Source: Blastocatellia bacterium
GTDB taxonomy: Bacteria > Acidobacteriota > Blastocatellia > RBC074
NCBI GenBank assembly: GCA_046331565.1
Contig: JAXLQP010000001.1
Span: forward strand, 2,158,347 to 2,222,346
Direction: 5' to 3'
Length of the DNA stretch: 64,000 bases
The translations under genes and the position numbers were made by a program. Under the pieces are notes generated by a model. The model was given only the letters and a program-made list of their open reading frames with translations. It was not told the DNA's origin and ran no database searches. Positions 3,677 through 57,471 of this stretch are shown here, piece after piece; the stretch's first letter is position 1, and every line of letters starts with the position of its first letter.

Positions 3677-3704
3677 TGTTTTATCCACCAGGCCGAACGA
3701 AGGG

Positions 3705-6067: not shown

Positions 6068-6117
6068 GGAGTGGATGTACTGATGCAGGTCAGGGTGAAG
6101 GAAGTTGAGGCAGGGGC

Positions 6118-11131: not shown

Positions 11132-11143
11132 GAAGAAGAATCA

Positions 11144-11218
11144 GACAGGATTAACAGGATAAACAGGATATTTCTGGTTGAAACAGTTCTGTTTATCCTG
11201 TCTTTCCTGTAAATCCTG
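11144..11218. repeat. Hairpin whose arms are 3 tandem 9-bp units (AACAGGATA x3 / TATCCTGTn x3).
   Basis: acaggattaacaggataaacaggata ... tatcctgtctttcctgtaaatcctgt. Intergenic between the blaR1-like stop and the repeat-protein gene. Confidence 0.6.
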
Positions 11219-11280
11219 TCAAAAATCTTCGTGCTTCTTCGTGTGGCTTAGTGGATAAGAAATGTGACTGAATCAGCGGT

Positions 11281-21682: not shown

Positions 21683-21854
21683 ACTTTCCCAATTTGCCAC
21701 TGGCTTCTTCCCGACTTGAAAGACCAGACTGAAGTCAGATGCCGCTTCAGCGGCGGGGAAGCAGACACCGTCCGGGTTCGGGCAGAGACTATCGGCTGCC
21801 AGCTTGTCGAACTTTCTGTTTCGTCTGTTCCGTCATCCCTGCTTTTCTTTTGGC

Positions 21855-23249
21855 CTACAGCGGCAACTTCAGTTTCGCTTCGCAGCCCGTGCCTGATTCA
21901 CTGTTTTCCAGCGTCAGCGTGCCGCCGTGCGCTTCGGCAATCTGACGACTCAGAACCAGGCCGATGCCGGAACCGCCGGGTTTGGTGGTAAAGAACGGCA
22001 CAAACAAATTCGATGTGCCTGACAGGCCAGGGCCTTCATCGGCAATGGTGATTTCCAGACGGCCTCTTTGTTTTGTCCAGTTCACCTGCACATTGCCGCC
22101 GGTTTCAAGCGAAGCTTCGACGGCGTTGCGCAGCAGGTTGATGAGCAGTTGTTCGAGTTGATCACCATCGGCCTGAATGGTCATTTCAGGCCCCGGCTGC
22201 AACTGCACCGTCAGGCGACGTTCGAGCGCGACGACGCGACTGATCAGTGCCGCAACATTCACCGGTTTGAAAGTCGGCTGCGGCAGGCGGGCGAGTTGCG
22301 CGTAGGCGCTCATAAAACGGCTGAGGGCTTCGGCCCGCGTTGAAATGACTTCCAGCCCGCGCCGCATATCCGCTTCCCAGTCATCAGCGCGGGGCGCACG
22401 CGACATAATCGAAGCCAGGCTGCCCGCAATTGATTTGATCGGAGTCAGCGAATTGTTCAGCTCATGCCCAAGCACCCGCACGATGCGCTGCCAGGCCTGA
22501 CGCTCTTCGTCGCGCAGCGCCTGGCTCAGATCGGTCAGCACCAGCAGGTGATGCGGGATGCCGTTTTCGTGAAACGTGCCGTGCCGCACGCCCCAGCGGC
22601 CAGCGCCACCGGGAAAGTTCAGTTGCCGCGTCGCCGGTTCGGTGTGACTGAGACAATCGCTCAGACCGAGTTCATCAGCGCGCAGACCGAGCAGGCGTTC
22701 TGCCGCGCGACCGAGCAGCTTTTCTCCGGCGCGATTGACCAGCCGCAACCGCTGTTCGCCATCAAAGGCAAAGACCGCGACTTCGATTTCGGCCATCACC
22801 GCCCGCAGCAGCGTGGTCGCCGCCAGCGCGTCCATCTTCTGCGCGCGCAGCGTGGTGTTGAGCGCATTCACTTCAGCCAGCAGTTCACCGAGCGCATCAT
22901 CAGGAACCGCATCGCGGGCGCGAATCGAATAATCCTCTTCGTGCAGGGCGGCAATCAGATTCGACACCGTTTGCAGCGGGCGAACCACGCGCTCACGCAA
23001 AGTCAGCGCAAACCCAAGCCAGCAACCCGTCATCAGCAGCGTCAGCGTCCATTGCACCTTGGCTGAAAAATCACCGCTCCATAACAAAACCAGCGCCACG
23101 ATGAGCGCGGGCAATCCCGCCAGCAGCGCCAGCATCAGCACCCGCTGATCGTGACTCAGTTTGCGGCGTGGACGCCTGCGCGCGCGCGCAGGAGCGCGTG
23201 ACGAAGCACGAACCACACTGGCCGGATTGTCGAGTTCGGATGACGCCAT
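21855..23249 (-). CDS. Sensor histidine kinase (NtrB/AtoS-like; 2 TM plus HAMP/PAS-like segment plus HisKA plus HATPase).
   Basis: H-box HELNNSLTPIKS; ATP-lid motifs DEGPG, GSGIGL. Confidence 0.75.
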   Translation of the reverse strand: MASSELDNPASVVRASSRAPARARRRPRRKLSHDQRVLMLALLAGLPALIVALVLLWSGDFSAKVQWTLTLLMTGCWLGFALTLRERVVRPLQTVSNLIAALHEEDYSIRARDAVPDDALGELLAEVNALNTTLRAQKMDALAATTLLRAVMAEIEVAVFAFDGEQRLRLVNRAGEKLLGRAAERLLGLRADELGLSDCLSHTEPATRQLNFPGGAGRWGVRHGTFHENGIPHHLLVLTDLSQALRDEERQAWQRIVRVLGHELNNSLTPIKSIAGSLASIMSRAPRADDWEADMRRGLEVISTRAEALSRFMSAYAQLARLPQPTFKPVNVAALISRVVALERRLTVQLQPGPEMTIQADGDQLEQLLINLLRNAVEASLETGGNVQVNWTKQRGRLEITIADEGPGLSGTSNLFVPFFTTKPGGSGIGLVLSRQIAEAHGGTLTLENSESGTGCEAKLKLPL

Positions 23250-24840: not shown

Positions 24841-24948
24841 TGGAGAAATTCCGGCGCAGTACCGGGAGCGTCAGCGACCTGGCCTCTTCAGCAGGCCGTT
24901 TCCGCCAGCACCAGGTCGCTGACGCTCCCGGTACCGCGCCACCTGTTT

Positions 24949-30876: not shown

Positions 30877-30908
30877 GCCGGATCAGATTTCAGATCAGTA
30901 TCCAGGAA

Positions 30909-31026
30909 GTGTTGCGCGATTTGCCAGAATCGCGCGTCATCCGTTATTGGCCCATTGCGTGAACTGCGCGATTCTGGCAAATCGCGCAACACTCCAGCCG
31001 CGCGACTGCGGGCAAATCGCGCAACA
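30909..31026. repeat. MITE family A, copy 2, with an extra partial right arm.
   Basis: Full element 30909-30992, then a duplicated half-site gcaaatcgcgcaacac at 31011-31026. Track ORF 30681..31160(-) is partly artifact. Confidence 0.7.
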
Positions 31027-31080: not shown

Positions 31081-31263
31081 TCAGTGCCGCGCGGTCTGAG
31101 TCTGTTTTGTGGCGGTCGCGCAATCGGCGTGGCCGCAGCCACAGGTCGTGCGGGTGTCAATATTGTCGTTGGCGTGCATGCAATGATCGCTGCAATAGGG
31201 CTGGCCTGACCGTGCCGGACAATTGCAGTTCGGATTGGCGCATTTGTCAGTCATCTCTGCCAT
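31081..31263 (-). CDS. smtA: Bacterial SmtA-type metallothionein.
   Basis: KCANPNCNCP....YCSDHC....CGCGHADC. The Cys/His spacing parallels cyanobacterial SmtA (KCACEPCLC...YCSEAC..GCGHTGC). Confidence 0.55.
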   Translation of the reverse strand: MAEMTDKCANPNCNCPARSGQPYCSDHCMHANDNIDTRTTCGCGHADCATATKQTQTARH

Positions 31264-31452
31264 CTTGATTCCTCCGAAAGTAATTCACGAAACCACACGA
31301 AAAGACACGGGACTCAGCGGCCACGCCGTCCGTGTCAGTTCGTCTGACTTCGTGAATGGTTCAAGCCTGATTCATGCAGGCATTAACCCGCCCCGACTTG
31401 ATAGGTTAATGCCTGCATCTCTTTCCTCACCAACCTCACTGAGGAAAGAAGC

Positions 31453-31998
31453 TCAGCGCGAAGCCAGATCGCCGCCCAGTTGTTTCCATTCGCGTTCGAT
31501 CTGTTCGGCTTCGGCAGCGGTGCGCGGTGTCACGCTGATCAGAATGCCGCCGCCTTTGATGCCTTCTTCATAGATTCGCGCGTGTTCTTCGGGAATGCCT
31601 GAACCAACCAGCGCACCAATCAGTCCGCCGGCAATCCCGCCCGCTCCGGCCCCGGCCAGTCCGGCGGCCAGCGGCCCGGCTACAACAATGCCCAGACCAG
31701 GCAAAGCAATAAAAGTTCCGATTGCGGCGAGCGCGCCCAGCAGTCCGCCAACGACCACACCGATGCCGCCGCCGACTCCCGCGCCTTCGAGCGCCTTGTT
31801 GCCCAGTTCGGTGGTGTTGGCGTTCGTGTCGCCGAAATAACGATTGCGCGTTTCATCAGACATCACGACGCTGGTGTCTTCGCGGCTGTAGCCCAGATCC
31901 ATCAGATAGTCATAGGCTCGTTCGGCGGCTGATTTGTCTCTGAACAGACCGCTGACGGTCGGCTGCCTGGCGGTTGAGGTGCTGCTGTTGTCTGCCAT
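31453..31998 (-). CDS. General-stress-protein-like (YflT/17M-type N-domain) protein with a glycine-zipper membrane segment.
   Basis: N-terminal AAERAYDYLMDLGYSREDTSVV; central GxxxG-rich hydrophobic segment; C-terminal IYEEGIKGGGILISV. Confidence 0.45.
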   Translation of the reverse strand: MADNSSTSTARQPTVSGLFRDKSAAERAYDYLMDLGYSREDTSVVMSDETRNRYFGDTNANTTELGNKALEGAGVGGGIGVVVGGLLGALAAIGTFIALPGLGIVVAGPLAAGLAGAGAGGIAGGLIGALVGSGIPEEHARIYEEGIKGGGILISVTPRTAAEAEQIEREWKQLGGDLASR

Positions 31999-32294
31999 TA
32001 TTTACTGCTCCTGCTGAGAGTTGATTAACTACGATCCGGGCGCGGGTTCACATCAAACCCGCCGGACGTGATTCAGTCGAAGTGCAAGCCTCATACCATC
32101 CCGCCCCCTCTGACGCCGCCGCGCTACCGCATTACTCCGTAACGCCTCAGAGTCACACCCGCGCACGGTCGTCCAACGCCTGTTCTGAATAAGAACAGCC
32201 ATTCGTCAAAGCAGCCTCTGAAACATTCTCACAGATGCCATTCATTCCAGCACGACAGTTGCTCACCAGTCGCACCGTCTGTCTGAAACAAGCA

Positions 32295-32378
32295 GTGTTG
32301 CGCGATTTGCCAGAACCGCGCGGATTACGCAATGAGCCGATGACGGATGCCGCGCGATTCTGGCAAATAGCGCAACAC
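32295..32378. repeat. MITE family A, copy 3.
   Basis: gtgttgcgcgatttgccagaaccgcgcgg ... cgcgcgattctggcaaatagcgcaacac. Track ORF 32235..32426(+) is an artifact. Confidence 0.7.
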
Positions 32379-32535
32379 ACGTTGGTTCAGGTTACTGATT
32401 TGAAATCTGATCCGGGTCGGGTGTGATGAAGAAACTCGAACTCGTAATCACGAATGTCTTCGCCATCGGCGGGGTGCGTCTGGTTTCGCTCCGGCGCCCG
32501 GCTTAAGGCTGCCGGATGACAGAAGGAGAACAAAC

Positions 32536-42236: not shown

Positions 42237-42254
42237 CTCAAACAACAGGCCGCT

Positions 42255-42335
42255 CCCTGTAGTCAACAATTTATTCGTTCTGATTTCCGTCATCGCGCCG
42301 GTTCAGACCTGAACGAATAAATTTACGGCTACGGG
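42255..42335. repeat. Palindromic element related to family F (18061-18166).
   Basis: ccctgtagtcaacaatttattcgttctg ... gaacgaataaatttacggctacggg. The loop carries the ttccgtcatc motif seen in family D. Confidence 0.5.
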
Positions 42336-42380
42336 CAGCGGCCTGGCTCATTATTTGATGCTTTTTTCAGGCAGTGACTG

Positions 42381-44330: not shown

Positions 44331-47300
44331 ATGCAGAAGCTGGCCGAAATCTGTGTTCGCCGTCCGGTTTTCGCCACAATGCTGATTCTGGCGCTGACTG
44401 TGGTCGGCGTCTTCTCTTTCTTCACCCTCGGCGTTGATCTTTTTCCGCGCGTTGATTTCCCGACCATCACTGTTTCCGTCCTCAATCCCGGCGCTTCGCC
44501 GCAGGAAATCGAAACCGAAATTACCGACAAGGTTGAAGCCTCGGTCAACACCATCAGCGGCATTGATGAATTGCGCTCGACCTCGATTGAAGGCGTCTCG
44601 CAGGTCTTTATCACGTTCGTTCTCGAAAAGGATGCCGATGTGGCCGCGCAGGAAGTGCGCGACAAAGTTAACCTGATTCTCGACGAACTGCCCGAAACCG
44701 CCGAAACGCCGATCATTCAGAAACTCGACACCGAGGCTGCTCCGGTGCTGCGCATCGTGATTTCGGCCCCGCGCCCGTTGCGCGAAGTCAATGACATTGC
44801 CGACAAACAGATTGGTGAAAAGCTTGAAAGCATCAGCGGCGTCGGTCAGGTGCAGATCATCGGCGGCAGCGAACGCGAAATTCAGATTCAGGTTGATCCT
44901 GACCGGATGCGCGCCTTCAACATCACCATCAACGATGTCGTCAATGCCGTCCGCGCGCAGAACATCGAAGTGCCGGGCGGGCGCATTGATCAGGGCACAC
45001 GCGAGCTGACGGTGCGCACGCTCGGACGCATCCGCGACATCGAAGGCTTCAATAACCTGGCCATCGCCAATAAAAATGGGTTTGCCGTCAAGGTGCGCGA
45101 CATTGGCCAGGCCGTTGACACCGCCGCTGAACAGCGCACTGCCGCGCTTTTTGACGGCAAACCGGCGGTCAGCATTCTGGTGTCAAAACAATCAGGCCAG
45201 AACACCGTCGCCGTTGCCGATGCAATCAGAGAAAGGCTGAATGAAATCAAACCGACGCTGCCGCCCGATGTGCATTACGAAATCGCGGGCGATCAGTCCG
45301 TCTACATTCGCGCCGCTGTCGAATCAATCGAAACGCACCTGATCGAAGGCAGCATTCTCGCTTCAATCGTCGTCTTTCTCTTTCTCTGGAACTTTCGCTC
45401 GACGCTGATTTCAGCCATCGCCATTCCGACTTCAATCATTTCAACCTTCGGCCTGATGGCGGCGATGGGTTACACGCTCAATCAGATCACGATGCTTGCG
45501 CTGACGCTGATGGTCGGCATCGTGATTGATGATGCGATTGTGGTGCTTGAGAACATTTATCGTTATATCGAAGAGAAAGGCCTGTCGCCGTTTCAGGCCG
45601 CCATCGAAGGCACGCGCGAAATCGGCCTTGCCGTCATGGCCACGACGCTTTCACTGCTCGCCGTCTTTCTGCCGGTCGGATTTATGGGCGGCATCGTCGG
45701 GCGGTTTATGTCTTCGTTCGGCCTGACGGCTTCGTTTGCAATTGCGGTTTCGCTGCTCGTTTCATTCACGCTGACGCCGATGCTGTCAGCCAGACTCATC
45801 AAACGCCGCGATCCTGAAACAGCCGCAGGCGGCAGCGAAGGCGCGCCCGAACGCACGCCGGGGCCGGAACCGAGCGCGCACGAAACCGTCGCGCAGATGC
45901 CGCCAGCACCCGCGCACGAACCGGCACACGCTTCAAAGGAAGGCCGCATTTACCGCCGCATTGATCGCAACTACACGCGCCTGCTTGAGTGGTCAATGGA
46001 ACATCGCAAGGTGATTGTCGCCCTGAGCGCGCTGACAATCATCAGCATCGTGCCGCTCTTTATGCTGATCGGCAAAAACTTTCTGCCCGTTGATGACCAG
46101 TCACAATTTGAAATCACTGTGCGCGCCGCTGAAGGCACGACATTGCCCGCGACACTGACCATCTTTCAGCGCATTGCCACTGAAGTGCGCAAACTGCCCG
46201 GCGTGACCGACACGCTGACAACTGTTGGCGGCGGTCAGCAGTCGCCGGTCAACAGCGGTTCGATTTACGTCAAACTCGCGCCCATCGAAGACCGCGAACT
46301 GTCGCAGCAGGAACTGATGCTGCGCGCGCGTGAACTGCTGAAAAAATTTCCATCAGAACTGCGCACCAGCGTGCAGCAGGTCGCAGGCATTTCAGGGGGC
46401 GGCTTTCGCAACGCCGATATTCAGTATCTCATCGGCGGCCCCGACATTCAGAAACTGACGCAGTATGCCGACACTCTGCGCCAGAAGATGCAGACCATTC
46501 CCAACGTGGTTGACGTGGACACATCAGTAGTCACGGGCAAGCCCGAACTGCGCGTGGTAATTGACCGGCAGCGCGCCGCTGATCTGGGCGTGCGGGTGGC
46601 CGACATTGCGCAGGCGCTGAACACGCTGATCGCCGGTCAGCGCGTCGGCACATTCAATGTCGGAAAGGATGATTACGACGTGCGCGTGCGCGCTGCTGGT
46701 GAATTTCGCAAAAGCGTCGAAGACCTCAAACGCATGACCGTTGCATCAAATCGCGGCGGCCAGATCACGCTTGATAACGTCGTGCACATCGAACCCGGAA
46801 CCGGCCCGTCCTCAATTGACCGGCTCAACCGTCAGCGACAGGTCACCATCACCGCCAACGTCACGCCCGGCGGTTCGCAATCGGAGGTGATTCAGCGTAT
46901 GAACGAATTTGTCAGTCAGATGAAACTCGACCCCGGATATACAACGGGCCTCGCCGGAAGATCGAAGGAACTGGGCCGCGCCGGTTATTACTTCGTTCTC
47001 GCCTTCGCGCTGTCATTCATCTTTATGTACATGGTGCTGGCCGCGCAGTTTGAATCGTTCATTCATCCGATCACGATTCTGCTGACGCTGCCGCTGGCGA
47101 TTCCCTTCGGCATCATCTCGCTGCTGATTTTCGGGCAGACGGTCAACATCTTTTCCGGCCTCGGCCTGCTGCTGCTGTTTGGCATCGTCAAGAAGAATGC
47201 GATTTTGCAGATAGATCACACCAACGGTTTGCGCGCGAAGGGACTGGAACGCCACGCCGCGATCATTCAGGCCAACCGCGACCGCCTGCGACCGATTCTG

Positions 47301-47591
47301 ATGACGACGATTGCGCTGGTGGCAGGCATGCTGCCGCTCGTCATTTCAAGCGGCCCCGGTTCAGGCACCAATCGTTCAATCGGAGTGCTGGTCGTTGGCG
47401 GCCAGTCATTGTGCCTGCTGCTCACGCTGCTCGCAGTGCCGGTCTTTTATTCATTGTGGGAGGATTTGCTTGAACTGCCGGTGTGGCGTTATCTCGGTCA
47501 TCGTTACACCCGCATCAAATCAGGCCTGCGCGAACGTGCGGTCGGTTATCTCTCGCCGCTCATCAATTCATTTCGCCGCCGACCGCGACAA
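44331..47591 (+). CDS. Efflux RND transporter permease (AcrB/CzcA superfamily). No stop codon before the next gene in this frame; reads through into the OMF.
   Basis: 12-TM RND architecture with two large periplasmic loops. Canonical N-terminus MQKLAEICVRRPVFATMLILALTVVGV. Confidence 0.8.
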
Positions 47592-49958
47592 ATGAGCATC
47601 ATCATCGGCCTTATTGCATTGATGTCAGCACCGACGATGACAGATGCCGCGCCGCTTGATCCGCGTGAGCGGGCGACAGCACAGACATTTCCAGCGCAAA
47701 GACACAAAGAGACAAAGAAGGTTTTATGCTCTCTTTGCGTTCTTTGTCCCTTTGCGCTGGAAATAAACCCGCTGACTGGTGCATTGAATGCTCGCCATGA
47801 CTTTGCGCTGTCATCCGCGCCGCAGCCTGTCGAACAGCAACAGCAGCAATCTCAGCAGCCGGGCCGTCGTGAACAGAAACCGCCGCGTCCTGGCGAGCAG
47901 CAGCCGTCGCAGCAGGAACAACCGCCCAATTCAAACTCGGCTCCGATTCGCCCGCGCAACGAGGCGCAGCAGAGCGCGCAGCCGCAGACCGGCCCGCAAC
48001 AGCAGCGACAGCAGACGCAGCCTGACACGACCGGCCCGCGCCCCGTCACTCCGCAATCGCCGACCACCACGCAACCCGCGCCTGGCAGCGCAGGCAGTCG
48101 CACAACTCAGCCCGGCACGAATCAGCAGCCTGGCGCGACGCCGCCAGCAGGCGCGCAACCAGGCGTGCCAGCCACGCCGGGTCAGGATGTGGGCATCACG
48201 CCGGGCATCGCTCCGGCACAGTTGCCGCCTCAGCCGCCGGTCGTTGCGCCCGATTACAAAGCGCCGCTGCGCCCGCTGCCTCCGGCTGAACGAGTCGGCG
48301 TTGACGTGCGCGAACACACGCCGCTGAGCCTGGAAGAGGCTGTGATGATGGCGCTCAATAACAACAAGGACATCAACATCTCGCGCATTGACACGCTGCT
48401 CGCCGGATATGATCTGAGCGCAGCGCGCGGCATTTACGATCCGAACATCACTTCTGAAAGTTATTATGAACATCGCGTGACGCCGGTCAGTTCAGTTATC
48501 GGCGGCGGCAGGAATGGTTCAGTCACGCAGAAAGATTTGACCGGCAGCGCAAGACTCGGCGGCTTTACGCCATTCGCCGGTGGCGCTTATCAGCTTGATT
48601 TTTCGTCCACGCGGCTGACCACCAACAATCAGTTCGTTTCGCTCAACCCGCAATTCCCTGCCGCGCTGACGGTGACTTACACACAACCGCTCTGGCGCGG
48701 GCTGCGGTTTGATGACAATCGCCGCCGCATCGAAGTTGCCAAAAAGAATCTGACGCTGACCGACGCTCAGTTCCGGCAGCGCGTGATTGAAATCATCACC
48801 CGCGTCGAGCAGGCTTACTGGGATCTGGTCTTTTCGCTCAGGAATCTTGACGTGCAGATCGAAGCCGTCAAACAGGCGCGGCGACAAAGCGAAAGCAATC
48901 GCCGGATGGTGCAGGAAGGATTGCTGGCGCCGATTGACATTGTGGCCGCTGACACTCAGGTAGCGACTTTCGAGCAGAATGTTTACACCGCGCAGGAATC
49001 AGTCACCCGCGCTGAAAACACGCTCAAGACGCTGCTGCTGGCTGATCGCACGTCGCCGCTCTGGTCGCAGGCCTTGTGGCCGACTACGCCGGTCACGCTG
49101 GAACCACCACGCCTTCAGCCTGGCGAAGCCGTTTCATCGGCGCTGGCGAGTCGGCCTGAATTGCAGCAGTTGCAGGCCTCAGCCGAAATCAACGAAATCA
49201 ATTCGCGTTATTACCGCGATCAGACCAGACCGCAGATTGATCTGGTCGGCACGTACACAAGTTCAGGGCTGGCCGGTTCGCCGGTTGACACCGGCCCTAA
49301 TCCTTTCACCCAGGGACTGGCCGGGCTGCAACAGCGCATCAACGACCTGTCGCGTCTGGCAGGGCTTGATCCGCTGCCGCCGCTGAGTTCAGGCGGAGGC
49401 ACAGTTTCCGACCTGCTCATTGGCGGCTATGGCCAGTCGCTCAGTAACCTGCTGCAACAGAACTATCCGACCACTCGTGTCGGGCTGCGCATCACGCTGC
49501 CGATTTTCAACCGCACGGCTGAAGCACAACTTGGCCGCTCACTGACTGAAGCAACGCGCATCATCAATCAGCGCGAACAGCTCGAAATACTGATCGAAGC
49601 TGAAGTCCGCAATACCATTCAGGCTGTGCGCTCAGCCGAAGCAAAGCTGGCCGCCGCCGCTTCGGCGCGCTCATCAGCCGAACAGCAGTTCGCCAGCGAA
49701 GAGCGACGTTTGCAGGCCGGGTTGTCCACGGTCTTTCTGGTGCTGCAACGTCAGACCGATCTGCTTGCCGCGCGTGGCCGCGAATTGCAGGCGCAGACTG
49801 ATCTGAATAAATCCATCGCTGAACTGCGCCGCGTTACGGGCGTCACGCTGCAATCACATCACATCACTTTGCAGGGTGAGAATCCCGGCAGGGCTACCGG
49901 AGAACGCATTTCAGCCGCACTGCTGCGCCAGCTTCAACTGACCAGCACACGCCGCTGA
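47592..49958 (+). CDS. TolC-like outer membrane factor with signal peptide and a long P/Q-rich linker. A MITE copy is embedded at 47667-47800.
   Basis: MSIIIGLIALMSAPTMTDA signal peptide. OMF repeats from about 48320 (LSLEEAVMMALNNNKDINISRIDTLLAGYDLSAARG..., second repeat ...AELRRVTGV). In frame with the RND gene. Confidence 0.6.
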   Translation: MSIIIGLIALMSAPTMTDAAPLDPRERATAQTFPAQRHKETKKVLCSLCVLCPFALEINPLTGALNARHDFALSSAPQPVEQQQQQSQQPGRREQKPPRPGEQQPSQQEQPPNSNSAPIRPRNEAQQSAQPQTGPQQQRQQTQPDTTGPRPVTPQSPTTTQPAPGSAGSRTTQPGTNQQPGATPPAGAQPGVPATPGQDVGITPGIAPAQLPPQPPVVAPDYKAPLRPLPPAERVGVDVREHTPLSLEEAVMMALNNNKDINISRIDTLLAGYDLSAARGIYDPNITSESYYEHRVTPVSSVIGGGRNGSVTQKDLTGSARLGGFTPFAGGAYQLDFSSTRLTTNNQFVSLNPQFPAALTVTYTQPLWRGLRFDDNRRRIEVAKKNLTLTDAQFRQRVIEIITRVEQAYWDLVFSLRNLDVQIEAVKQARRQSESNRRMVQEGLLAPIDIVAADTQVATFEQNVYTAQESVTRAENTLKTLLLADRTSPLWSQALWPTTPVTLEPPRLQPGEAVSSALASRPELQQLQASAEINEINSRYYRDQTRPQIDLVGTYTSSGLAGSPVDTGPNPFTQGLAGLQQRINDLSRLAGLDPLPPLSSGGGTVSDLLIGGYGQSLSNLLQQNYPTTRVGLRITLPIFNRTAEAQLGRSLTEATRIINQREQLEILIEAEVRNTIQAVRSAEAKLAAAASARSSAEQQFASEERRLQAGLSTVFLVLQRQTDLLAARGRELQAQTDLNKSIAELRRVTGVTLQSHHITLQGENPGRATGERISAALLRQLQLTSTRR
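47667..47800. repeat. MITE family C, copy 2, inside the OMF coding region.
   Basis: Near-identical to 26859-26992. Translated in-frame as RERATAQTFPAQRHKETKKVLCSLCVLCPFALEINPLTGALNARHD. Confidence 0.65.
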
Positions 49959-49976
49959 ATCCCGGAAACGAAAAAG

Positions 49977-50160
49977 AGAGATGACGGAACAGACGGAAAT
50001 AACGGAATAAACTGAAAGCTTCAGAGCAGATTTATGTCTTCTTTCGTGTGTTCCGTTATTTCCGTCTGTTCCGTCATCTCTCTTCTTTCTCTTCTTCCTT
50101 ACTCTTCGTTCTCTTCTTCCTTATCTGTTTCCTCTTCCTCGTTCCGGGTCACATCTGACG
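49977..50160. repeat. Family D hairpin, copy 1 (perfect 32-bp arms of 9-bp TTCCGTnnn units), followed by a CT-rich run.
   Basis: gagagatgacggaacagacggaaataacggaa ... ttccgttatttccgtctgttccgtcatctctc, then cttctttctcttcttcctt... Confidence 0.65.
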
Positions 50161-50326
50161 GCGCTGCCGGTTGCGCGCCGGGGATCAGATTTTCAGGAGC
50201 CTTGCCTGCTCCGGCTCTGGCCTGCGTGTACTTTTGTTTTTCCAGTTCCTGCGTTCCCGGATCGCCCTGCCGCAGGCGGCCAGCGGTTTTGTAATGGTCG
50301 GGATTGACGTTGTTTTTGCTGCTCAT
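50099..50326 (-). CDS. Small protein (76 aa) with an acidic tail encoded by the CT-rich run.
   Basis: ATG 50326 with GGAG 7 nt upstream. C-terminal NEEEETDKEEENEE derives from the polypyrimidine repeat. Confidence 0.35.
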   Translation of the reverse strand: MSSKNNVNPDHYKTAGRLRQGDPGTQELEKQKYTQARAGAGKAPENLIPGAQPAAPSDVTRNEEEETDKEEENEE

Positions 50327-50358
50327 AATCAATGCTCCATCAGAGATGAATCTTTATT

Positions 50359-51489
50359 TCAGGCGGTGGCGCTTTGCAGGCTGAACCGCAGTTTCGCGCT
50401 GACGCCGCCATAAGGTTCCAGCAGGCTGTTGTCTTCGATGAATGTAATGCGCGCATCGGTGCAGTGAGCGCGGCGAATCAGTTCATCAGCAATCATCACC
50501 CTGCGATCAGCGTCCGTCTGACTGAGCGCCGTCTCAACAAATGGCATATCGTCCTGCACCAGATCGTCCGTCACGCTTTGCGGTGCAGCGGTCAGAAAGA
50601 GTTCTTCGACCTGACCGCGAATCAGCGCCTGCAACGTCTCGTGCGCGCCTGAGACTGACAAGCCTTTGCCCAGATCCTTGTCAAAAAGTTTTTCGATGCG
50701 GCCCGCGTCATCTCTGGCATTTTGCGCGCGCACGGCTTCAAGGCCCGCTTTCATCACTTCCTGCTCAGGCGTGCTGATGTCGAGCCGGAGGACATCAATG
50801 ACTGAATCCTCAAGCTGCTTCGGCAACTGTTCGCGCAGCAGCGGAATGATGACTTCATCACCGGCCAGCACAATCCAGCGAATGTCCTCGCGGCTCATCA
50901 GGACGGTCAGTTCATCAATGACTTCTTTGGCGTGCTGGTGATGAAAGTTGTCAACGTGACGCTGGTAGCGCGCCTGCGACCAGCCGCCGACCTGAGAACG
51001 GTTTATATTGACGCCGGTCACGTCCTGCTGCTCGATCTTTTCGCCCAGCCCGAACACATACAGATGCGCTGTATTGGTGTCGGCCACCAGCACGGCAAAC
51101 GACGGGTACTGATCGTTGACCAGTTCAAGCGGGAACAGATAAGGCTGGCGTCCGGTAAAAAGCTGACTCTCACCAATCGGCACATCAAGCTGCACAGCTT
51201 CAAAGAAATCATTCGCACCGGCACAGGCAAAGACTGCTGCGCCATTTGCTGAAGCGCGCAATTCATCGCGCAGCCACGCATTGATGCGCTCGCAGTCGCG
51301 GTCAAAGCTTTCGCGCTCAGGTGACCTCAGTTCAAACTCATCAGCGCGCGCCTTGAACTCCTTGCGCAGATAAGCCTCAAAGTGATCGCGCCCGGTGTTA
51401 TCAGGCTGCGTGTTGAGATAAAGGCTGATGAATGGCGAATCAGCGGGTTCAATTGCGGCCAGCCTGTCCAGTAATTTATTCAGCGGCAT
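50359..51489 (-). CDS. baeRF10-like (eRF1/Dom34-fold release-factor-like) protein.
   Basis: N-terminal LDRLAAIEPADSPFISLYLNTQPD pattern typical of bacterial/archaeal eRF1-like families. Family assignment from memory. Confidence 0.45.
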   Translation of the reverse strand: MPLNKLLDRLAAIEPADSPFISLYLNTQPDNTGRDHFEAYLRKEFKARADEFELRSPERESFDRDCERINAWLRDELRASANGAAVFACAGANDFFEAVQLDVPIGESQLFTGRQPYLFPLELVNDQYPSFAVLVADTNTAHLYVFGLGEKIEQQDVTGVNINRSQVGGWSQARYQRHVDNFHHQHAKEVIDELTVLMSREDIRWIVLAGDEVIIPLLREQLPKQLEDSVIDVLRLDISTPEQEVMKAGLEAVRAQNARDDAGRIEKLFDKDLGKGLSVSGAHETLQALIRGQVEELFLTAAPQSVTDDLVQDDMPFVETALSQTDADRRVMIADELIRRAHCTDARITFIEDNSLLEPYGGVSAKLRFSLQSATA

Positions 51490-51828
51490 GATTAGTGATC
51501 ACTCCTTTCACAGCGGTTCGATAACAGTTCACTGTGATGAATCAATGTGCAACTGTCGCGCCACGAACGCCTGAGGCAGATCACTTTAACCGGGATCAGC
51601 AGGGACTGGTTTTCGCCCCGGAGGGGCTGGTGAAAATAGCGCGGCAATTCATTGCCGGGAACAATGGAAAACAGGCGCGAGTCCCGTCAGGGACGGTTGA
51701 TGAATGCTGCTTCAGCCGTCCCTGACGGGACTCGCGCTTTATCCGGGATTCTTTTCCCGGCAATGAATTGCCGCGCTATTTTCGATTGTCCCTGCCGGGA
51801 CAGCAGAAGTGTTCTGAGTTCGACGGCC

Positions 51829-53100
51829 TCAGTTCTCACCTGTCAGCAGCGGGCCGACGCTTTCTTCAGGATGGTGAATGTAAGTCTGAATCTGTTCGAC
51901 CAGCGGCGTGGCTTTCCACCGTCGCCCACCGGCCTGATCGTTGATTTTGTAAAGGCCCAGATCAATGTAATAACGCTCGACCGGACGACGGCCCAGCCGA
52001 TAACGCCAGTCCACCATCGTAAAGAGCGGAAACCACGTATAGCCCAGCACCGGAATGCCCGAGGCGCGCAACTGCCGGATCATCGCCACTGACGCGCGCA
52101 TCCAGCGTGAACGCACTTCATCGTGGCCGAGGGCGCTGGTTTCGGTAATGATGATGGGCGTTTTGTAACGATGATAATAATCCTCGATCAGCGCGGCGAA
52201 ACCGTCGCCGTCGTGTTCGATGGAGCGATAAGAGATGCGGCCCTTGTGGTCAACGTAAATCTGTTTGGTTGACCATTGCGGATAGAAATTCATCCCCAGC
52301 ACTTCAATCGGAATGCGCCGTTGCACAATGTCGGCCAGTTCATCGGGCGAGGCCCCGTTGCGCAGCAGCCAGCCGAACAGCGGATGATCGTGCGTGACCA
52401 TCCCGGCAATCAGGTCAAAGAAAAGATAACCGCGCCGCTGATCTTCGAGTGCCAGCACTTCCAGTTCCTGCCGAATCGCGCGGCTCAGACCCGTCGCTTC
52501 GACCTGCACCATCACCGCATTCGGATCAACTGTTTTCAGCGCCTCAACCGTGTTGATGACGCCTCTGACAATTTGCAGCATGATCCGAATGTAACCCGCA
52601 TCGCCGCGCAGATAGGGCGGCCAGAGGCCGCGCCTGCCGCACATCAGCGCATTGACGAGCGGTTCATTAAGCGGCGTGTACCATCTCACCAGACTGCCGT
52701 AACGGCGCGCAAAGGCGGCGGCGTATTCGGCCACTGCGACCGGGTATTCATCGCTCGCAAATTCGCGCCGCAGCCAGAATGGGCAGCCGTAATGCATCAG
52801 GTCAATGATCGGCACAATGCCGAGTTCTTCGACAATGTGCGGGATGACCTCATCAGTCCAGCGCCAGTCAAAATTGCCCGGTGTGGGTTCGACGCGATAC
52901 CAGGGCACACCCCAGCGCGCCGCTTTGACGCCGACTTCGGAGAGCAGCGCCAGGTCTTCGCGCCAGTGTTCGTAATGGCCCATCAGTTCGTATTCATCAA
53001 GCGCACGATGACCGAGCCTCGTCTGCGGCACAAACGTATCCTCAATGCCGCTGGCCCAGATGAAATCCTTTGCGTGCTGGCTCAAGACCAGTTGATTCAT
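51829..53100 (-). CDS. GH1-like glycoside hydrolase (short, about 420 aa form).
   Basis: TIM-barrel GH1-like motifs YTPLNEP (acid/base) and IIITETS (nucleophile region). Paralog of 61460..62617. Start taken at MNQLVLSQ. Confidence 0.5.
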   Translation of the reverse strand: MNQLVLSQHAKDFIWASGIEDTFVPQTRLGHRALDEYELMGHYEHWREDLALLSEVGVKAARWGVPWYRVEPTPGNFDWRWTDEVIPHIVEELGIVPIIDLMHYGCPFWLRREFASDEYPVAVAEYAAAFARRYGSLVRWYTPLNEPLVNALMCGRRGLWPPYLRGDAGYIRIMLQIVRGVINTVEALKTVDPNAVMVQVEATGLSRAIRQELEVLALEDQRRGYLFFDLIAGMVTHDHPLFGWLLRNGASPDELADIVQRRIPIEVLGMNFYPQWSTKQIYVDHKGRISYRSIEHDGDGFAALIEDYYHRYKTPIIITETSALGHDEVRSRWMRASVAMIRQLRASGIPVLGYTWFPLFTMVDWRYRLGRRPVERYYIDLGLYKINDQAGGRRWKATPLVEQIQTYIHHPEESVGPLLTGEN

Positions 53101-53131
53101 AGTGGCGTGGAGGTTTTGAAGGAAATGTTCG

Positions 53132-55138
53132 TCAGTCCAGCGCAGTGACGCGCACCTGATCGAAGACCGCGACCACCCGGTAACCGTACAATCCCAGTAA
53201 TCCGGCCTCGCCCTGCACTTCGATTTCACCGAGCGGCTGCGCTTCGTGCTGCATCAGCAGCCGGTTGCCGACGCGGCGAAAGCGGAACTGCTGAAATTCA
53301 AACGGCTCGAAATTCGGCGGCAGCGGAAAGATTTGTCTGTCAGTCGCCGTGTCGTAACAGAGCGACCAGCGTTTGTCCTGACACTCAACCGTCAGCAGCG
53401 GGCTGTTGCCGGTGGTATTGAGCGCGGGCAGAAAGCCGTAACATTCACCCGGCTTCGGCTCGCCAATCAGCTTTGCATTGATGACGACTTCGTAATTTTC
53501 AGGCAGCGGCCCTTTGGTCAGAATCGAACTTTCACCGTGCGGCCCGATGTACCAGAGCTGCTGCTCACTGATCTGCCAGCGGTCGTCATCGGCAGTCGTC
53601 ACCCAGTTGAACGCAGCCGGATCAGTGCGCGAGCCGGTGAATAAATCTTCCCAGCCTCTGGTCAATGCAAACCCGGCAAACTCAGCCCGCGCATCGCGTG
53701 TCATCAATGCTGCCGCCGATGGCGTCACGCTCAGTTCACCTGTCCACTGCAACGCCGTGCCGTCAACCGAAAGCGTAACCAGGCGTCCGTTGACTTCGAG
53801 GCGCAGCAGATGAAAGGCTGAATAATCGAAATGCGGCAGCGGCAGCGCCTGTTGCGACAACTGTTCGTCCACCTCGAAAGTCACGACCGCCTCACCTGTG
53901 TTCGGATGCAGCAGAAAGATCAGCGCCGTTTCCTCGTCGCTGACCAGTTTGATTCCCGCGCCGCCCCCGGCTGGCGGCAACTCAGTCAGGCGCAGGCTGA
54001 CTTCGGCCAGGAAATACGGAGTGTCGGCTGAAGACAACGCTTCGGCTTCGCCTGCGGGAACATTCTGGCTCGCAATCCCGCTGGTCGCGCTCCAGTGACC
54101 GCCGGTACAGAACCAGTGTTCACCCAGGCCGTGTGCATAATCAGTCTCGAAATAATCGGCGAACGAGGGCGTAACGGGTGCGGGCTGCGGCGTATAGCTC
54201 GGCCCCTGCACAAACATTCGTTCACCGGCAAAATCGAGCGGATCAACGCACAGCACGCGGTCATTCACATCGGCTGACCAGCGATGATAGATGCAATACA
54301 ACTGCCGGTTGTCAGGCCCGCGCACGACTGAGTTGTGACCTGGCCCGATCACTTCGCCGGGAATCGTGCGCAGGATCGGCAGAATGCGCTCACCATCGGC
54401 GGCCTGTGTCCATTCATCCGGCACTTCAAGATTCGGCGTCGTGGCGAAGCTGACCCCGTAAGTTTCATTCTGCCAGTTGCCCGCGCTGAACATTTCGTAA
54501 TAACGGCCTTTGCGTTTCAGCACAAACGGCCCTTCGACCGTGTGCCAGCGCGCGCCGCCCTTTGACTGCCGCTGCGGGTCATAAATCTGCCAGTCAAATC
54601 GCGCTCTGGTAATCGGGCGCGGATTGCCTTCAAGCGTGAAGGGATCAATCATCCGGTCGCAGACGGTACCGGTGCCGATGTGTGAATGGGTCAGAAAATC
54701 GGTGGCGTAAAAGAGCCAGCGGGTGCCGTCGTCATCGGCAAAAACGTGTGCGTCAATGGCGAATTCCTCAGTCGTCAGCCGCACTCCGCAATCGGTGAAC
54801 GGGCCAGCCGGGTGGTCGGCGCGAGCCACGCGGATTTGCATGTGTTCCTCGTCGCCGACGCTGTAATACATCAGAAAGGCGCCCTGTTCGCACCAGACTT
54901 CAGGCGCCCACCAGCACGGATCCAGTCTGCCGCCGGGATCAAGCGCCCCGCCGATTTCACGCCAGTGAATCAGATCGCGGGAATGCAGCACTCCGAAACA
55001 ACGCCCGTCAGGCTGAATCCCGGTCGAGTAACACCAGTATTCGTTCAGGTGCTTCAGCACAAACGGGTCAGGACAGGGACGCGGACAGACCGGATTCAGA
55101 TAAGTCATCCGGTCGGTTGCTTGTTCGACGGCATTCAT
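53132..55138 (-). CDS. GH43-family glycoside hydrolase with a roughly 330-aa C-terminal extension.
   Basis: PDPFVL (catalytic base Asp), AIDAHVF (modulator Asp), EGPFVL (catalytic acid Glu). Confidence 0.55.
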   Translation of the reverse strand: MNAVEQATDRMTYLNPVCPRPCPDPFVLKHLNEYWCYSTGIQPDGRCFGVLHSRDLIHWREIGGALDPGGRLDPCWWAPEVWCEQGAFLMYYSVGDEEHMQIRVARADHPAGPFTDCGVRLTTEEFAIDAHVFADDDGTRWLFYATDFLTHSHIGTGTVCDRMIDPFTLEGNPRPITRARFDWQIYDPQRQSKGGARWHTVEGPFVLKRKGRYYEMFSAGNWQNETYGVSFATTPNLEVPDEWTQAADGERILPILRTIPGEVIGPGHNSVVRGPDNRQLYCIYHRWSADVNDRVLCVDPLDFAGERMFVQGPSYTPQPAPVTPSFADYFETDYAHGLGEHWFCTGGHWSATSGIASQNVPAGEAEALSSADTPYFLAEVSLRLTELPPAGGGAGIKLVSDEETALIFLLHPNTGEAVVTFEVDEQLSQQALPLPHFDYSAFHLLRLEVNGRLVTLSVDGTALQWTGELSVTPSAAALMTRDARAEFAGFALTRGWEDLFTGSRTDPAAFNWVTTADDDRWQISEQQLWYIGPHGESSILTKGPLPENYEVVINAKLIGEPKPGECYGFLPALNTTGNSPLLTVECQDKRWSLCYDTATDRQIFPLPPNFEPFEFQQFRFRRVGNRLLMQHEAQPLGEIEVQGEAGLLGLYGYRVVAVFDQVRVTALD

Positions 55139-55253
55139 CGTGCTGGCCTGCTCCTGCCTGCGGGAACGCGGTCTGCCTGCCCGATTTTCTGGAAAGCATG
55201 ATGACAATCAGGCGGGCGCGACAACCGCGCTCCCGAATATTTTCGGCTGATTT

Positions 55254-55454
55254 TTATTCGGGCATGGGCTGAGCGAACAGCGCCGCAAATCTTTCCCGTG
55301 CATTCGGGGTTTCGCTCCGGCGTTTCTCTCTGGCCCAGCGGACAACCGACTCCACCGTAGTCTGAATGACTGATGCCTGTGCCGCCTCGCGGCGTTCCTG
55401 CTGTTGTTGTTGTTCAGTAATTTCGTTTCGTTTGATCAGTCTCGCTTTGCTCAT
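55254..55454 (-). CDS. Small hypothetical protein (66 aa).
   Basis: GGAGG 9 nt upstream of ATG. Confidence 0.4.
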   Translation of the reverse strand: MSKARLIKRNEITEQQQQQERREAAQASVIQTTVESVVRWAREKRRSETPNARERFAALFAQPMPE

Positions 55455-55786
55455 GGTGATTTCCTCCGGCCAAACGTGCTTGTCAGCCTGAAGTCAGGGC
55501 AACTGCCGTACCAGCCTGTTTACCCCATTCAATCGGGCCATTTGCGGCCCGGTCTGAGTTTCAGCCGCCGGATTCGCACGAAGGAAATACGCCGCAGTGT
55601 CCGTCCCTCGAACGCACGCCAGCACCGGCAGCGTCATGATTTCGTCGCCTGACTGGCATTCGGTTTGCTCCATCAACAGGTGAACAATTGTGTGATTCTG
55701 CAAACTGAAAATGACAGGCTGAGGAAAGGCAGCCGGGACCTTCGGCGGACTGGTCGAGAATACGCCGGGTCTGAAACACAAGAATT

Positions 55787-56317
55787 ATGGAAAGCAAAGC
55801 CAAATTACTGGGGCATCCCATTCATCCCATGCTGATCGTTTTCCCGCTCGGATTACTGACGATGGCGGTCATCTTTGACCTGATCCATCTGAGTACGACG
55901 AATGGTTACTGGGCAGGCATCTCATTTTATCTGATCGCTGCCGGTGTGATCGGCGGTCTGCTGGCGGCGCTCTTTGGCCTGATTGACTGGGTCGCCATTC
56001 CGCGAGGCACGCGAGCCAAAAACATCGGGCTGGTTCACGGACTGGGCAATGTGGCGGTCATCGTGCTTTTCATTGTCAGTTGGCTGATGCGGCGCAACCT
56101 GCCTGAAAGCCCGTCGCTGGTGGCGATTCTGCTCGGCCTGATCGGGCTGGGCCTGTCGCTGATAACAAGCTGGCTGGGCGGTGAACTGGTTGACCGGATG
56201 GGCGTCGGCGTTGACAACGGCGCGCACCTGAACGCTCCCAATTCACTCTCAGGCCGACCGGCGAGCGATGACATTTCGCGCGTCAGATCAATGCCGACCA
56301 CGCACCGGACGGCTTAA
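55787..56317 (+). CDS. DUF2231-like membrane protein.
   Basis: 4 TM helices; HPIHPMLIVFP motif. Confidence 0.5.
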   Translation: MESKAKLLGHPIHPMLIVFPLGLLTMAVIFDLIHLSTTNGYWAGISFYLIAAGVIGGLLAALFGLIDWVAIPRGTRAKNIGLVHGLGNVAVIVLFIVSWLMRRNLPESPSLVAILLGLIGLGLSLITSWLGGELVDRMGVGVDNGAHLNAPNSLSGRPASDDISRVRSMPTTHRTA

Positions 56318-56330
56318 CCAGAAAGCAGAA

Positions 56331-56432
56331 GAGAGATGACGGAACACACGGAAAGAATGGAACAGACGAAAATAAACTCAGGCAGGGTGATCTGTTCCGT
56401 TATTTCCGTTCTTTCCGTGTATTCCGTCATCT
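56331..56432. repeat. Family D hairpin, copy 2 (4 x TTCCGTnnn units per arm).
   Basis: gagagatgacggaacacacggaaagaatggaacagacg ... ctgttccgttatttccgttctttccgtgtattccgtcatctc. Confidence 0.65.
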
Positions 56433-56463
56433 CGCTGTCTCTCACTGAGCGAATGAAAACAAA

Positions 56464-57471
56464 ATGCGAGTAATGGTGACCGGCGGAGCCGGATACATTG
56501 GCAGCGTCGTGACCGAAGTTCTCATCCGGGACGGGCACGAGGCCGTCGTTTATGACAACCTGTCGAAAGGCCATCGCGCCGCCGTCGTGCCGCAGGCGAA
56601 ATTCGTCTGCGGTGAACTGCGTGACGGCGATCTGTTGCGGCGCGCGCTGGTTGATCACCGCGTCGAAGCGGTCATTCACATGGCTGCTTCATCGCTGGTC
56701 GGCGAATCGGTGCTGCATCCGGCGAAGTATTATCACAACAACCTGCTGACGGGCCTGACGCTGCTCAATGCCATGCGCGATTGCGACGTGGCGCGGCTGG
56801 TCTTTTCTTCGACTGCGGCGGTGTACGGCGAACCGGCCAGACAGCCGATTGAAGAAAGTGATCCGACCGCGCCGACCAATCCTTACGGTGAAACCAAGCT
56901 GGCCTTTGAGCATGCGCTGCGCTGGTTCAGTCAGGCTTATGAGCTGCGCTATGTGTCGCTGCGTTATTTCAATGCCGCCGGAGCGACGGCGCATTGCGGC
57001 GAACATCACCAGCCGGAAACTCACCTGATTCCGATTGTGCTGCAGGCGGCGGCGGGACAGCGCGAATTTGTCGAGGTGTTCGGTGATGATTACCCGACCC
57101 GCGACGGAACCTGTGTGCGCGATTACATTCACGTTGCCGACCTTGCCCGCGCACACGTGATGGCGCTGGAACTGACCGCCGAACGCAGCGGCATTTACAA
57201 CCTGGGTTGCGGCGGCGACGGGTACACGGTGCTGGAAGTCCTCAATGCCGCGCGCGAAGTCACCGGACAGCAGGTCAGTGTGCGCAACAGTGCACGACGC
57301 CCCGGCGATCCGGCAGTGCTGATTGCCAGTTCCGACCGCATCAGAGAGGAACTCGGCTGGCAGCCTGAACAGCAGGATTTGCGCGCCATCATCGCTTCAG
57401 CGTGGCAGTGGATGCAGCGACACCCGCACGGTTACGAAGCCGGGGCGCAGCCCGCAGACAGCAGCAGATGA
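56464..57471 (+). CDS. galE: UDP-glucose 4-epimerase.
   Basis: VTGGAGYIGS; YGETK catalytic Tyr-x3-Lys. Confidence 0.85.
   Translation: MRVMVTGGAGYIGSVVTEVLIRDGHEAVVYDNLSKGHRAAVVPQAKFVCGELRDGDLLRRALVDHRVEAVIHMAASSLVGESVLHPAKYYHNNLLTGLTLLNAMRDCDVARLVFSSTAAVYGEPARQPIEESDPTAPTNPYGETKLAFEHALRWFSQAYELRYVSLRYFNAAGATAHCGEHHQPETHLIPIVLQAAAGQREFVEVFGDDYPTRDGTCVRDYIHVADLARAHVMALELTAERSGIYNLGCGGDGYTVLEVLNAAREVTGQQVSVRNSARRPGDPAVLIASSDRIREELGWQPEQQDLRAIIASAWQWMQRHPHGYEAGAQPADSSR

Follow-up and report, generated by a model that had tools for sequence, protein, structure and literature searches.

Several intergenic regions in a 64,000-nucleotide (nt) stretch of Blastocatellia bacterium contig JAXLQP010000001.1 (called the window here; coordinates are positions in it) carry long hairpins whose arms are tandem arrays of short units, among them two built from ACGGAA cores repeated every 9 bp. 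What kind of element is this, and what might it do between genes? Comparison of the window with related loci identified these hairpins as copies of dispersed palindromic repeat families with tandem-subrepeat arms. They resemble REP elements and miniature inverted-repeat transposable elements (MITEs), and we propose, with roughly even confidence, that they act as strong bidirectional RNA hairpins at the 3′ ends of genes.

Hairpins built from ACGGAA units

An inverted-repeat scan placed copy 1 of the ACGGAA family at 49971-50087 (left arm 49971-50012, loop 50013-50045, right arm 50046-50087) and copy 2 at 56330-56436 (arms 56330-56371 and 56395-56436). The 42-nt arms of copy 1 (gatgACGGAAcagACGGAAataACGGAA on the left and TTCCGTtatTTCCGTctgTTCCGTcatc on the right) are 93% complementary; each consists of three good 9-bp units and a decayed fourth, and the base of the stem is the purine-rich AGAGAGA / TCTCTCT. 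Copy 2 has four units per arm, with an arm length of 42 nt and a complementarity of 83%. The arms of both copies read gatgACGGAA cagACGGAA ataACGGAA and the complement, with a spacing of exactly 9 bp (ACGGAAnnn / nnnTTCCGT), which bears out the three to four regularly spaced units that an initial annotation of this DNA had noticed at both places. Tandem Repeats Finder reported 9-bp periods independently. At no more than one mismatch, TTCCGTNNNTTCCGT has 13 matches in the window versus 0.35 expected, a count that none of 100 shuffles reached, and ACAGGATNNACAGGAT has 4 matches versus 0.00 expected. RNA folding of these elements is predicted to yield -60 to -75 kcal/mol on both strands (z = -9 to -12), with values of -74.5 and -71.4 kcal/mol for the two strands of copy 1.

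The half-arms that the initial annotation had placed near 21815 and 42286 are real. The one at 21806-21836 on the minus strand (ctgtttcgtctgttccgtcatc) comprises two to three units including the terminal GATGACGGAAC, lacks a partner arm, and lies 19 nt past the stop codon of the minus-strand gene 21855-23249. The other is a single terminal unit, TTTCCGTCATC (tttccgtcatc), at 42286-42296 on the plus strand, inside the loop of a hairpin at 42246-42345. By arithmetic, such an 11-mer is expected by chance about 0.03 times per 128 kb of two-strand sequence; the unit is probably a remnant.

A dispersed family with covarying arms

We assembled a family set from a metagenome scan for GATGACGGAACNNACGGAA and from loci found earlier (loci from other contigs or genomes compared with the window carry L-numbers below). 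The initial annotation had set rarity, with fewer than 5 copies, and an unconserved architecture against the idea of a repeat class; the set comprises at least 17 complete hairpins, drawn from no fewer than 12 contigs, with a conserved architecture. With the loops trimmed, 17 copies gave a gap-free alignment with a mean column identity of 89%. The order of units is constant throughout (ACGGAA-CAR-ACGGAA-AKA-ACGGAA-CAR-ACGGAA, hence spacers CAR, AKA and CAR), and the copies share the ends (A)GAAGAGAGATGACGG...CCGTCATCTCTCTTC, as the terminal inverted repeats of MITEs do. Their flanks also have features in common, namely, a purine run before the stem (7.4 of 8 positions are purines) and TCTCTTCY after it.

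Pairing of the hairpin is under constraint. In the 41-pair stem, 89% of the cells pair, and changes on both sides were found in 10 of the 41 pairs; for instance, stem columns 21/66 are AU in six copies, GC in six and CG in two. None of 500 shuffles gave covariation as strong as that observed, and sliding the partner by one to three columns reduced pairing to 42-52%. The ACGGAA cores are invariant or nearly so, and variation gathers in the middle of the spacers. The arms of the 17 copies are inverted, with 21-52 nt between the 33-nt arm cores. The loops differ strongly between most copies and are conserved within subfamilies, and several copies are nested in the loop of another palindrome family. 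A BLAST search of copy 1 against plasmids gave no match.

Other unit types in the window

The initial annotation had likened an element at 11144 to the ACGGAA hairpins. This CAGGAT hairpin (11144-11220; arms 11144-11170 and 11194-11220) indeed shares their architecture, its 27-nt, 89% complementary arms consisting of three 9-bp units each (GACAGGATT AACAGGATA AACAGGATA versus TATCCTGTC TTTCCTGTA AATCCTGTC), although it sits in the loop of an outer hairpin at 11106-11256 that had been missed. The arms of the latter carry CACGAAG units with a period of about 10 bp, and its ends read TCCACCAGGGC / GGCTTAGTGGA (termini TCCACCAGG... / ...GGCTTAGTGGA). Two further hairpins had also escaped notice. 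A composite hairpin at 3680-3880, between convergent genes, has the same outer ends as 11106-11256 and inner arms made of the 8-bp units AGGAGAAG; its inner array is unequal, the left arm (3714-3793) containing 10 units and the right one (3822-3849) 3.5. A relative with 10-bp units (CACGAAnnnn) lies at 31283-31357 between the minus-strand genes 31453-31998 and 31081-31263, with a predicted folding energy of -40.6 kcal/mol (z = -5.2). The window thus contains at least four unit types under one architecture, plus many non-periodic hairpin families.

The outer ends of both composite hairpins (3682-3690 and 11248-11256, with 11107-11115 and 3872-3880) read TTATCCACC / TTATCCACT. These fit the 9-bp DnaA-box consensus, TTWTNCACA, at 8 of 9 positions, a curiosity that is possibly a coincidence.

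Location downstream of stop codons

The elements occupy the space just after stop codons. Nearly every copy of the ACGGAA family begins 4-60 nt after a stop codon, and all copies are intergenic; the same holds for all elements of the window, as the initial annotation had it. Copy 2 lies between a DUF2231 gene (55787-56317), whose stop codon is 13 nt upstream of it, and galE (56464), which follows 27 nt after its end; copy 1 lies between convergent neighbors, a 1875-residue open reading frame (ORF) at 44331-49958 (plus strand) and a small ORF at 50099-50332 (minus strand). For the composite at 11106-11256, the distance to the stop codon of the preceding BlaR1-like M56 gene (11281-13722, minus strand) is 25 nt, and 35 nt separate its downstream end from the next ATG (11069-11071). 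The hairpins of the window sit 13-25 nt after stop codons, in the way that the stable stem-loop of an intrinsic terminator does. Canonical terminators made of a hairpin and a U-tract are not enriched between 44 and 64 kb (21 found versus 21.9 expected). Of 35 gene ends in the window, roughly 10 are followed by a structure whose energy per 130 nt is -60 kcal/mol or lower; coding windows have a mean of -43.8 (standard deviation 8.3). A scan of the window for tRNA and transfer-messenger RNA genes found none.

Persistence and turnover at orthologous sites

The elements persist at orthologous sites, yet they turn over and nest in each other. A GalE homology search, whose best matches were annotated as Blastocatellia or Pyrinomonadaceae, provided loci L120 and L121 (GalE identity 97% and 81%, respectively), both of which are syntenic with positions 49.9-64 kb of the window. 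Retention of the element at orthologous sites was found at 97% and 81% protein identity for the galE locus and at 89% for the BlaR1 locus. Copy 1 is at the same place in L120 and L121, with compensated spacer changes (cag/ctg to caa/ttg) and unrelated loops. Copy 2 is also present in L120, where it is better paired; its slot in L121 is taken by an unrelated perfect palindrome, and the downstream flank can still be aligned. At 11045-11136, L121 has a hairpin of 7-nt units (CATTCTC ×4 / GAGAATG ×4) between galE and galK, two genes that overlap by ATGA in the window (57468-57471) and in L120, which represents a presence/absence difference within an operon. No clean empty site for the ACGGAA family was found among the relatives compared.

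At the BlaR1 slot, L364 (89% identity) carries the same nested composite as the window, with inner units changed alike on both arms (CAGGATA/TATCCTG versus CAGGATG/CATCCTG), a difference that reads as concerted evolution of units and arms. In L365 (62%) the slot contains a different hairpin with an AGCAAAnnn ×4 array, and in L366 (100%) the contig ends inside the element. Thus, some hairpin is kept at the slot even where, as in L121 and L365, it is an unrelated one. The CAGGAT family also occurs at 2842-2932 of L037, another Blastocatellia metagenome-assembled genome (MAG), side by side with the CACGAAG family. Both the ACGGAA and the CAGGAT families were found across Blastocatellia genomes.

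Recurrence of the architecture across phyla

A genome scan for (TTCCGTNNN)3 returned at least 119 stretches. Many of those listed have plus- and minus-strand matches 40-200 nt apart, i.e., the same hairpin design, most often with CACGGAAnn units. The architecture with a CACGGAA core and a 9-bp period occurs in bacteria of the Planctomycetes-Verrucomicrobia-Chlamydiae (PVC) group, Proteobacteria, Bacteroidota, Gemmatimonadota and viral contigs, in at least five phyla among the matches listed. Of the genome-specific REP/MITE class suggested by the initial annotation, the REP/MITE-like character therefore stands, while its restriction to one genome falls, with representatives in other Blastocatellia and in those phyla. 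The ends are typical of lineages: AACCAC...GTGGTT in Planctomycetota and Verrucomicrobiota, GCCCAC...GTGGGC in Opitutaceae, GTCCAC...GTGGAC in Betaproteobacteria, and TCTCAC...GTGAGA in Bacteroidota. Carriers include isolates (Wenzhouxiangella, Thiohalobacter and an Opitutaceae strain). Opitutaceae and Verrucomicrobia repeatedly have nested forms, with CACGAA units outside and CACGGAA units inside. Some arrays among the scanned loci are solo and have no partner arm, and an additional scan of the same loci revealed that units of 7-10 nt come in many other types. Of 51 periodic hairpins in intergenic DNA, 16 are located between convergent genes, an enrichment relative to the background (78 of 389 intergenic regions), and 6 between divergent genes, a depletion (background 87 of 389). 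The copies of the window are ordinary members of a widespread, barely described class.

The viral contig L331 contains two CACGGAA hairpins (3705-3812 and 4408-4511) that are 86% identical, loop included, and have the same flanks; the loop is inverted between the copies. Each lies about 20-26 nt past a stop codon, and between the two is a small-terminase-like gene, with the large terminase gene just downstream. The sole protein-coding cargo seen between such arms is a GxxExxY gene (TIGR04256, E = 5e-31), which lies between inverted CACGGAA arrays in L081 (1040-1790; a Vicinamibacterales MAG). Another candidate for a cargo-bearing arm pair, L015 of Oceanisphaera ostreae, was rejected: its region at 5490-6125, between convergent genes, consists of three tandem left-arm arrays, each with a similar module of about 200 nt, followed by a single right-arm array.

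Some contigs end inside elements or in long, pure 9-bp arrays (the end of L366; the starts of L007, L026, L113 and L119), and arrays can exceed 10 units; the elements thus break short-read assemblies. CACGGAA-type hairpins are also present in MAGs labeled Methanosarcinaceae or Methanobacteriota (L060 6005-6084; L021 about 5500-5650), which represents either occurrence across domains or binning contamination.

A putative role at transcript 3′ ends

Each element can be viewed as one long hairpin whose arms are mirror-image tandem arrays of 8-10-bp units, 4 × 9 bp in the ACGGAA family. In its transcript, an RNA stem of 30-45 bp would form, preceded by a run of purines (5′) and followed by a U/C-rich stretch (3′). 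Because of their placement in the short space after stop codons, the elements would be cotranscribed with the upstream gene from either strand, and the most likely mode of action is that of a cotranscribed, orientation-independent 3′-end hairpin. The stem would mark or protect the end of the transcript, possibly as a bidirectional terminator-like barrier, as a block to 3′ exonucleases, or as a target for cleavage by a double-strand-specific RNase, modes with precedents in REP and Correia elements, and either mode would insulate neighboring genes. If so, the hairpins would help explain how transcripts are punctuated in genomes where canonical terminators are not enriched, and a simple search for their cores could serve to annotate gene ends in Acidobacteria and PVC bacteria.

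The families would also reach new sites, with the loops of other hairpins as frequent targets. Nesting in loops, the galE-galK hairpin present in L121 and missing from the window and L120, and the pair of similar copies in L331 point to such spread. The uniformity of the arrays may be kept by slippage or conversion of units, together with arm-to-arm correction or selection for pairing. Slippage and arm-to-arm correction account for array uniformity, as in L364, and not for the family sequence shared by the 17 copies. The comparisons themselves show family membership, position, constraint on pairing, conservation at orthologous sites, turnover and nesting; what we infer is the RNA-level action, the mode of spread and the reason for the periodic cores.

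Several observations weigh against this proposal. Copies with asymmetric ends (GATGACGG versus GAATACGG) occur in either orientation relative to the flanking genes, which is what a DNA-level or orientation-blind element would show. Among sense-strand mismatches, G-U (29) and A-C (22) do not differ significantly. The tail after the stem averages 4.2 T in 8 positions with C interruptions and thus is not the canonical U-tract of 7-9 nt of an intrinsic terminator, and stem and loop are far longer than in a canonical one. As for the MITE-like part, the 40-nt flanks of the 17 copies contain no direct repeat that would represent a target-site duplication; the flanks continue the palindrome instead, and a duplication, if there is one, may itself be palindromic. 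A search for an autonomous parent in about 3 Mb of fetched loci revealed no arm pairs 250-4000 nt apart around a transposase-like cargo, the GxxExxY gene being the only cargo. The nearly invariant cores and free spacers point to sequence-specific recognition, beyond a purely structural role of the RNA. Finally, the position after stop codons can simply reflect selection that removes insertions elsewhere.

Competing explanations

The conserved cores raise the question of whether the elements work as DNA. Each arm might be a row of contiguous sites for a sequence-specific protein (nucleoid-associated, a global regulator, gyrase-type or similar) on the duplex or on an extruded cruciform, a reading that we regard as unlikely. 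It would fit the invariance of the ACGGAA cores next to variable mid-spacer positions, the recurrence of the CACGGAA core and its period in several phyla with lineage-specific ends, the existence of solo arrays, and the fact that neither strand nor orientation bias was detected. The initial annotation had argued from helical phasing that the units are not simply phased binding sites. This argument is weak: MetJ on metboxes and the omega protein of pSM19035 bind contiguous tandem units of 7-8 bp cooperatively, and therefore a 9-bp period does not exclude protein binding. For paired 7-9-nt arrays of Geobacter, IHF/HU-type binding is proposed in the genome paper (PMC2700814). However, regulator sites would be expected at promoters, whereas the elements sit after stop codons and are depleted in divergent regions, and we know of no candidate protein. 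Moreover, spacer bases covary between the arms, which are separated by anything from 13 to 56 nt or more, showing that the arms matter as partners and not as two independent duplex sites. That the elements are selfish miniature transposable elements, with arms as terminal inverted repeats, subrepeats as sites for a transposase encoded elsewhere, a post-stop position that is just a tolerated insertion, and no host function, appears rather improbable. Dispersed homologous copies with loops conserved within subfamilies, both orientations, copies nested in other palindromes, presence/absence differences between relatives, copies in viral contigs and assemblies broken at elements all agree with it, and subrepeats as multiple transposase-binding sites have parallels at the ends of Tn7, Mu and IS21 and in eukaryotic Foldback elements. 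Yet no target-site duplication is visible, the 3 Mb of fetched loci yielded no longer, same-ended element with a transposase (the gene in L081 being the sole cargo), most loops are strongly different, and copies persist at orthologous sites even where protein identity has fallen to 81%, their pairing preserved by compensatory changes. Where an element was lost, another hairpin rather than an empty site replaced it. No transposase-like genes were found among the small ORFs listed in the intergenic regions of the window or in an NCBIfam scan of element-adjacent genes; RAYT itself was not looked for.

Two other explanations seem very improbable to us. Replication slippage and template switching, with one arm copied from the other, could produce such hairpins as local mutational by-products that do not belong to a spreading family. 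The way in which every unit of either arm differs in concert between the window and L364, the unequal arms of 3714-3849 (10 versus 3.5 units), the long pure arrays at contig ends, and the different periodic hairpins in the same slot of relatives speak for this. However, the 17 copies at unrelated loci share ends, unit order and flanks, which independent local origin cannot yield, and as a sole explanation it is largely refuted by the family alignment. Equally hard to credit are independent small-RNA genes or protein sponges, e.g., GGA arrays that titrate a CsrA-like protein. While every unit of the purine-rich arms carries GGA, AGGA or GGAG, these motifs are buried in the stem and not exposed in loops, there are no accompanying promoter-like sites, and some phyla that have the architecture do not generally have CsrA. 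Rfam gave no match at the gathering threshold in the whole window, and a permissive scan returned only eukaryotic miRNA-precursor models below threshold, a generic long-hairpin signal. Both the CsrA-sponge and the anti-Shine-Dalgarno readings were rejected on sequence grounds. The core is complementary over an 8-mer to the conserved 23S rRNA segment GACGGAAAGACC, presumably a coincidence.

A further idea, to which we give a low probability, is put forward tentatively. (C)ACGGAA cores every 9 bp on stems may represent the recognition array of a widespread factor, either a hairpin-targeting mobilization enzyme, and thus a new bacterial class of foldback-type mobile elements, or a dedicated 3′-end-hairpin protein for termination or processing. 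Such a factor would explain together the recurrence of core and period across phyla and viruses, the lineage-specific spacers and ends, and the insertion of elements into each other's loops. A protein that reads the periodic cores would be an apparently widespread one that has so far gone unnoticed.

Relation to known repeat classes

REP and MITEs are familiar, but a class with arms composed of a short, conserved core in tandem, located right after stop codons and present in several phyla and viral contigs, is not established in the literature searched. Searches by unit strings and by words found no paper that names this class except the Geobacter metallireducens genome paper; they otherwise returned work on REP, STRR and TAACTGA repeats. 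The G. metallireducens paper describes "putative global regulator binding sites" of classes 1-3, multicopy intergenic pairs on opposite strands at variable distance (Aklujkar et al. 2009, BMC Microbiol 9:109, PMC2700814). According to its description of these sites, they consist of three to five tandem repeats of 7-9 nt, namely, GTTGCTYN ×4 (24 pairs), TCTCCGTS[Y] ×3 (21 pairs) and MTYCTGA ×5 (8 pairs); binding of IHF/HU is raised there as an untested speculation, some pairs have insertion sequences at a constant distance, and one pair is located between proB and proA, where Geobacter sulfurreducens has a different repeat (PMC2700814). As far as this description goes, the elements of the window likewise have three to five contiguous units of 7-9 nt (3-4 × 9 bp, with sister families of 8 and 10 bp) and form paired, opposite-strand, multicopy intergenic sites. 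The core of class 2, CTCCGTG, differs by a single base from the TTCCGTG of our elements, and the turnover at proB/proA is of the kind seen in the relatives of the window. Unlike the latter, the Geobacter sites belong to another phylum, have other unit sequences, and are given in supplementary alignments, in an account that, where it treats them, comes without pairing, covariation or stop-codon analysis; in the alignment, the class 3 arms look less strictly complementary. We conclude that the elements are best filed as intergenic palindromic repeat elements that match a descriptive class noted once, and left untested, in Geobacter.

Other classes share single traits with them. Cyanobacterial STRR and the TAACTGA repeats of Beggiatoaceae are abundant 7-nt tandem repeats, intergenic only and shared by distant lineages (PMC4679880). 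In contrast to our elements, their repeats are direct and mostly occupy 5′ leaders, where the arrays end adjacent to start codons; inverted partners are essentially absent, a single inverted case having been found in 170 sets (PMC4679880). Terminal inverted repeats built from short tandem subrepeats have been described for the Foldback and Galileo transposons of Drosophila (PMC3573991). The likeness of our elements to these is architectural only, without evidence of a relationship. Foldback and Galileo are eukaryotic, with kilobase-scale arms, and a transposase is known for some.

Like the elements of the window, REP, BIME and REPIN sequences of Proteobacteria are palindromes in intergenic DNA at gene 3′ ends. 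These high-copy extragenic palindromes, located at 3′ ends or between cotranscribed genes, stabilize the upstream mRNA, bind gyrase and IHF, are targets of insertion sequences and show long vertical persistence; a REP is a self-complementary unit of 20-40 nt with a GTAG or CGTC head, and a REPIN consists of two such units. Our elements differ in that their arms are purine-rich tandem arrays that are not self-complementary and form one 100-nt hairpin, with CGTC only within the terminal unit CCGTCATC. Correia/NEMIS elements of Neisseria and ERIC elements of enterobacteria are MITEs of 100-150 bp with terminal inverted repeats, located in transcribed intergenic DNA; their long-hairpin transcripts are processed (by RNase III for Correia) and alter mRNA levels. 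The ACGGAA elements resemble them as elements of about 100 bp with terminal inverted repeats that form long hairpins, but those inverted repeats are plain and not subdivided into tandem units, and Correia elements duplicate a TA target, whereas no duplication was found here.

Other readings of the units were rejected. As a DnaA box, the 9-mer TTTTCCGTG fits TTWTNCACA at only 6 of 9 positions. The ends GATGACGG / CCGTCATC are not those of an integron attC site (RYYYAAC / GTTRRRY), as GTTCCGT does not fit GTTRRRY. Iterons are direct repeats of about 17-22 bp by an initiator gene at an origin, whereas our units measure 9 bp, are contiguous, form inverted arrays and lie beside unrelated chromosomal genes, with no replication gene or origin nearby; the iteron-like character seen by the initial annotation is a visual analogy only.

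Neighboring genes and additional repeats

The small ORF next to copy 1 (50099-50332, minus strand) precedes a baeRF/ribosome-hibernation-like gene. As listed, it encodes 77 residues with an acidic C-terminal tail (EEEETDKEEENEE); it gave no family match, and it is a neighbor of the baeRF-like gene also in L120 and L121. The spacer between the baeRF-like and GH1 genes has three states. In the window (51616-51799) it contains two nested non-periodic hairpins (339 nt), in L120 (1687-2468) two extra small genes, one of them DUF433, and in L121 (5342-5415) it consists of 74 nt only. This spacer looks like an insertion hot spot.

Downstream of the 11106-11256 composite, a tandem repeat of 87 bp (174 bp) with about 75% identity and approximately three to five copies (10139-10622) lies in an ORF and therefore encodes a repeated protein segment. 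A non-periodic palindromic family has three copies in the window, at 1071-1156, 30908-30993 and 32283-32390, with AGTGTTGCGCGATTTGCCAGAATCGCGCGG arms and loops of 26-30 nt; two of the three are 100% complementary. The hairpin at 24853-24940 (arm GGCGCAGTACCGGGAGCGTCAGCGACCTGG, 97% complementary) has a 79%-identical counterpart at 3982-4060 of L073, an unrelated Acidobacteria MAG, and the two form a further shared repeat family that contains CGTCAGCGAC(G).

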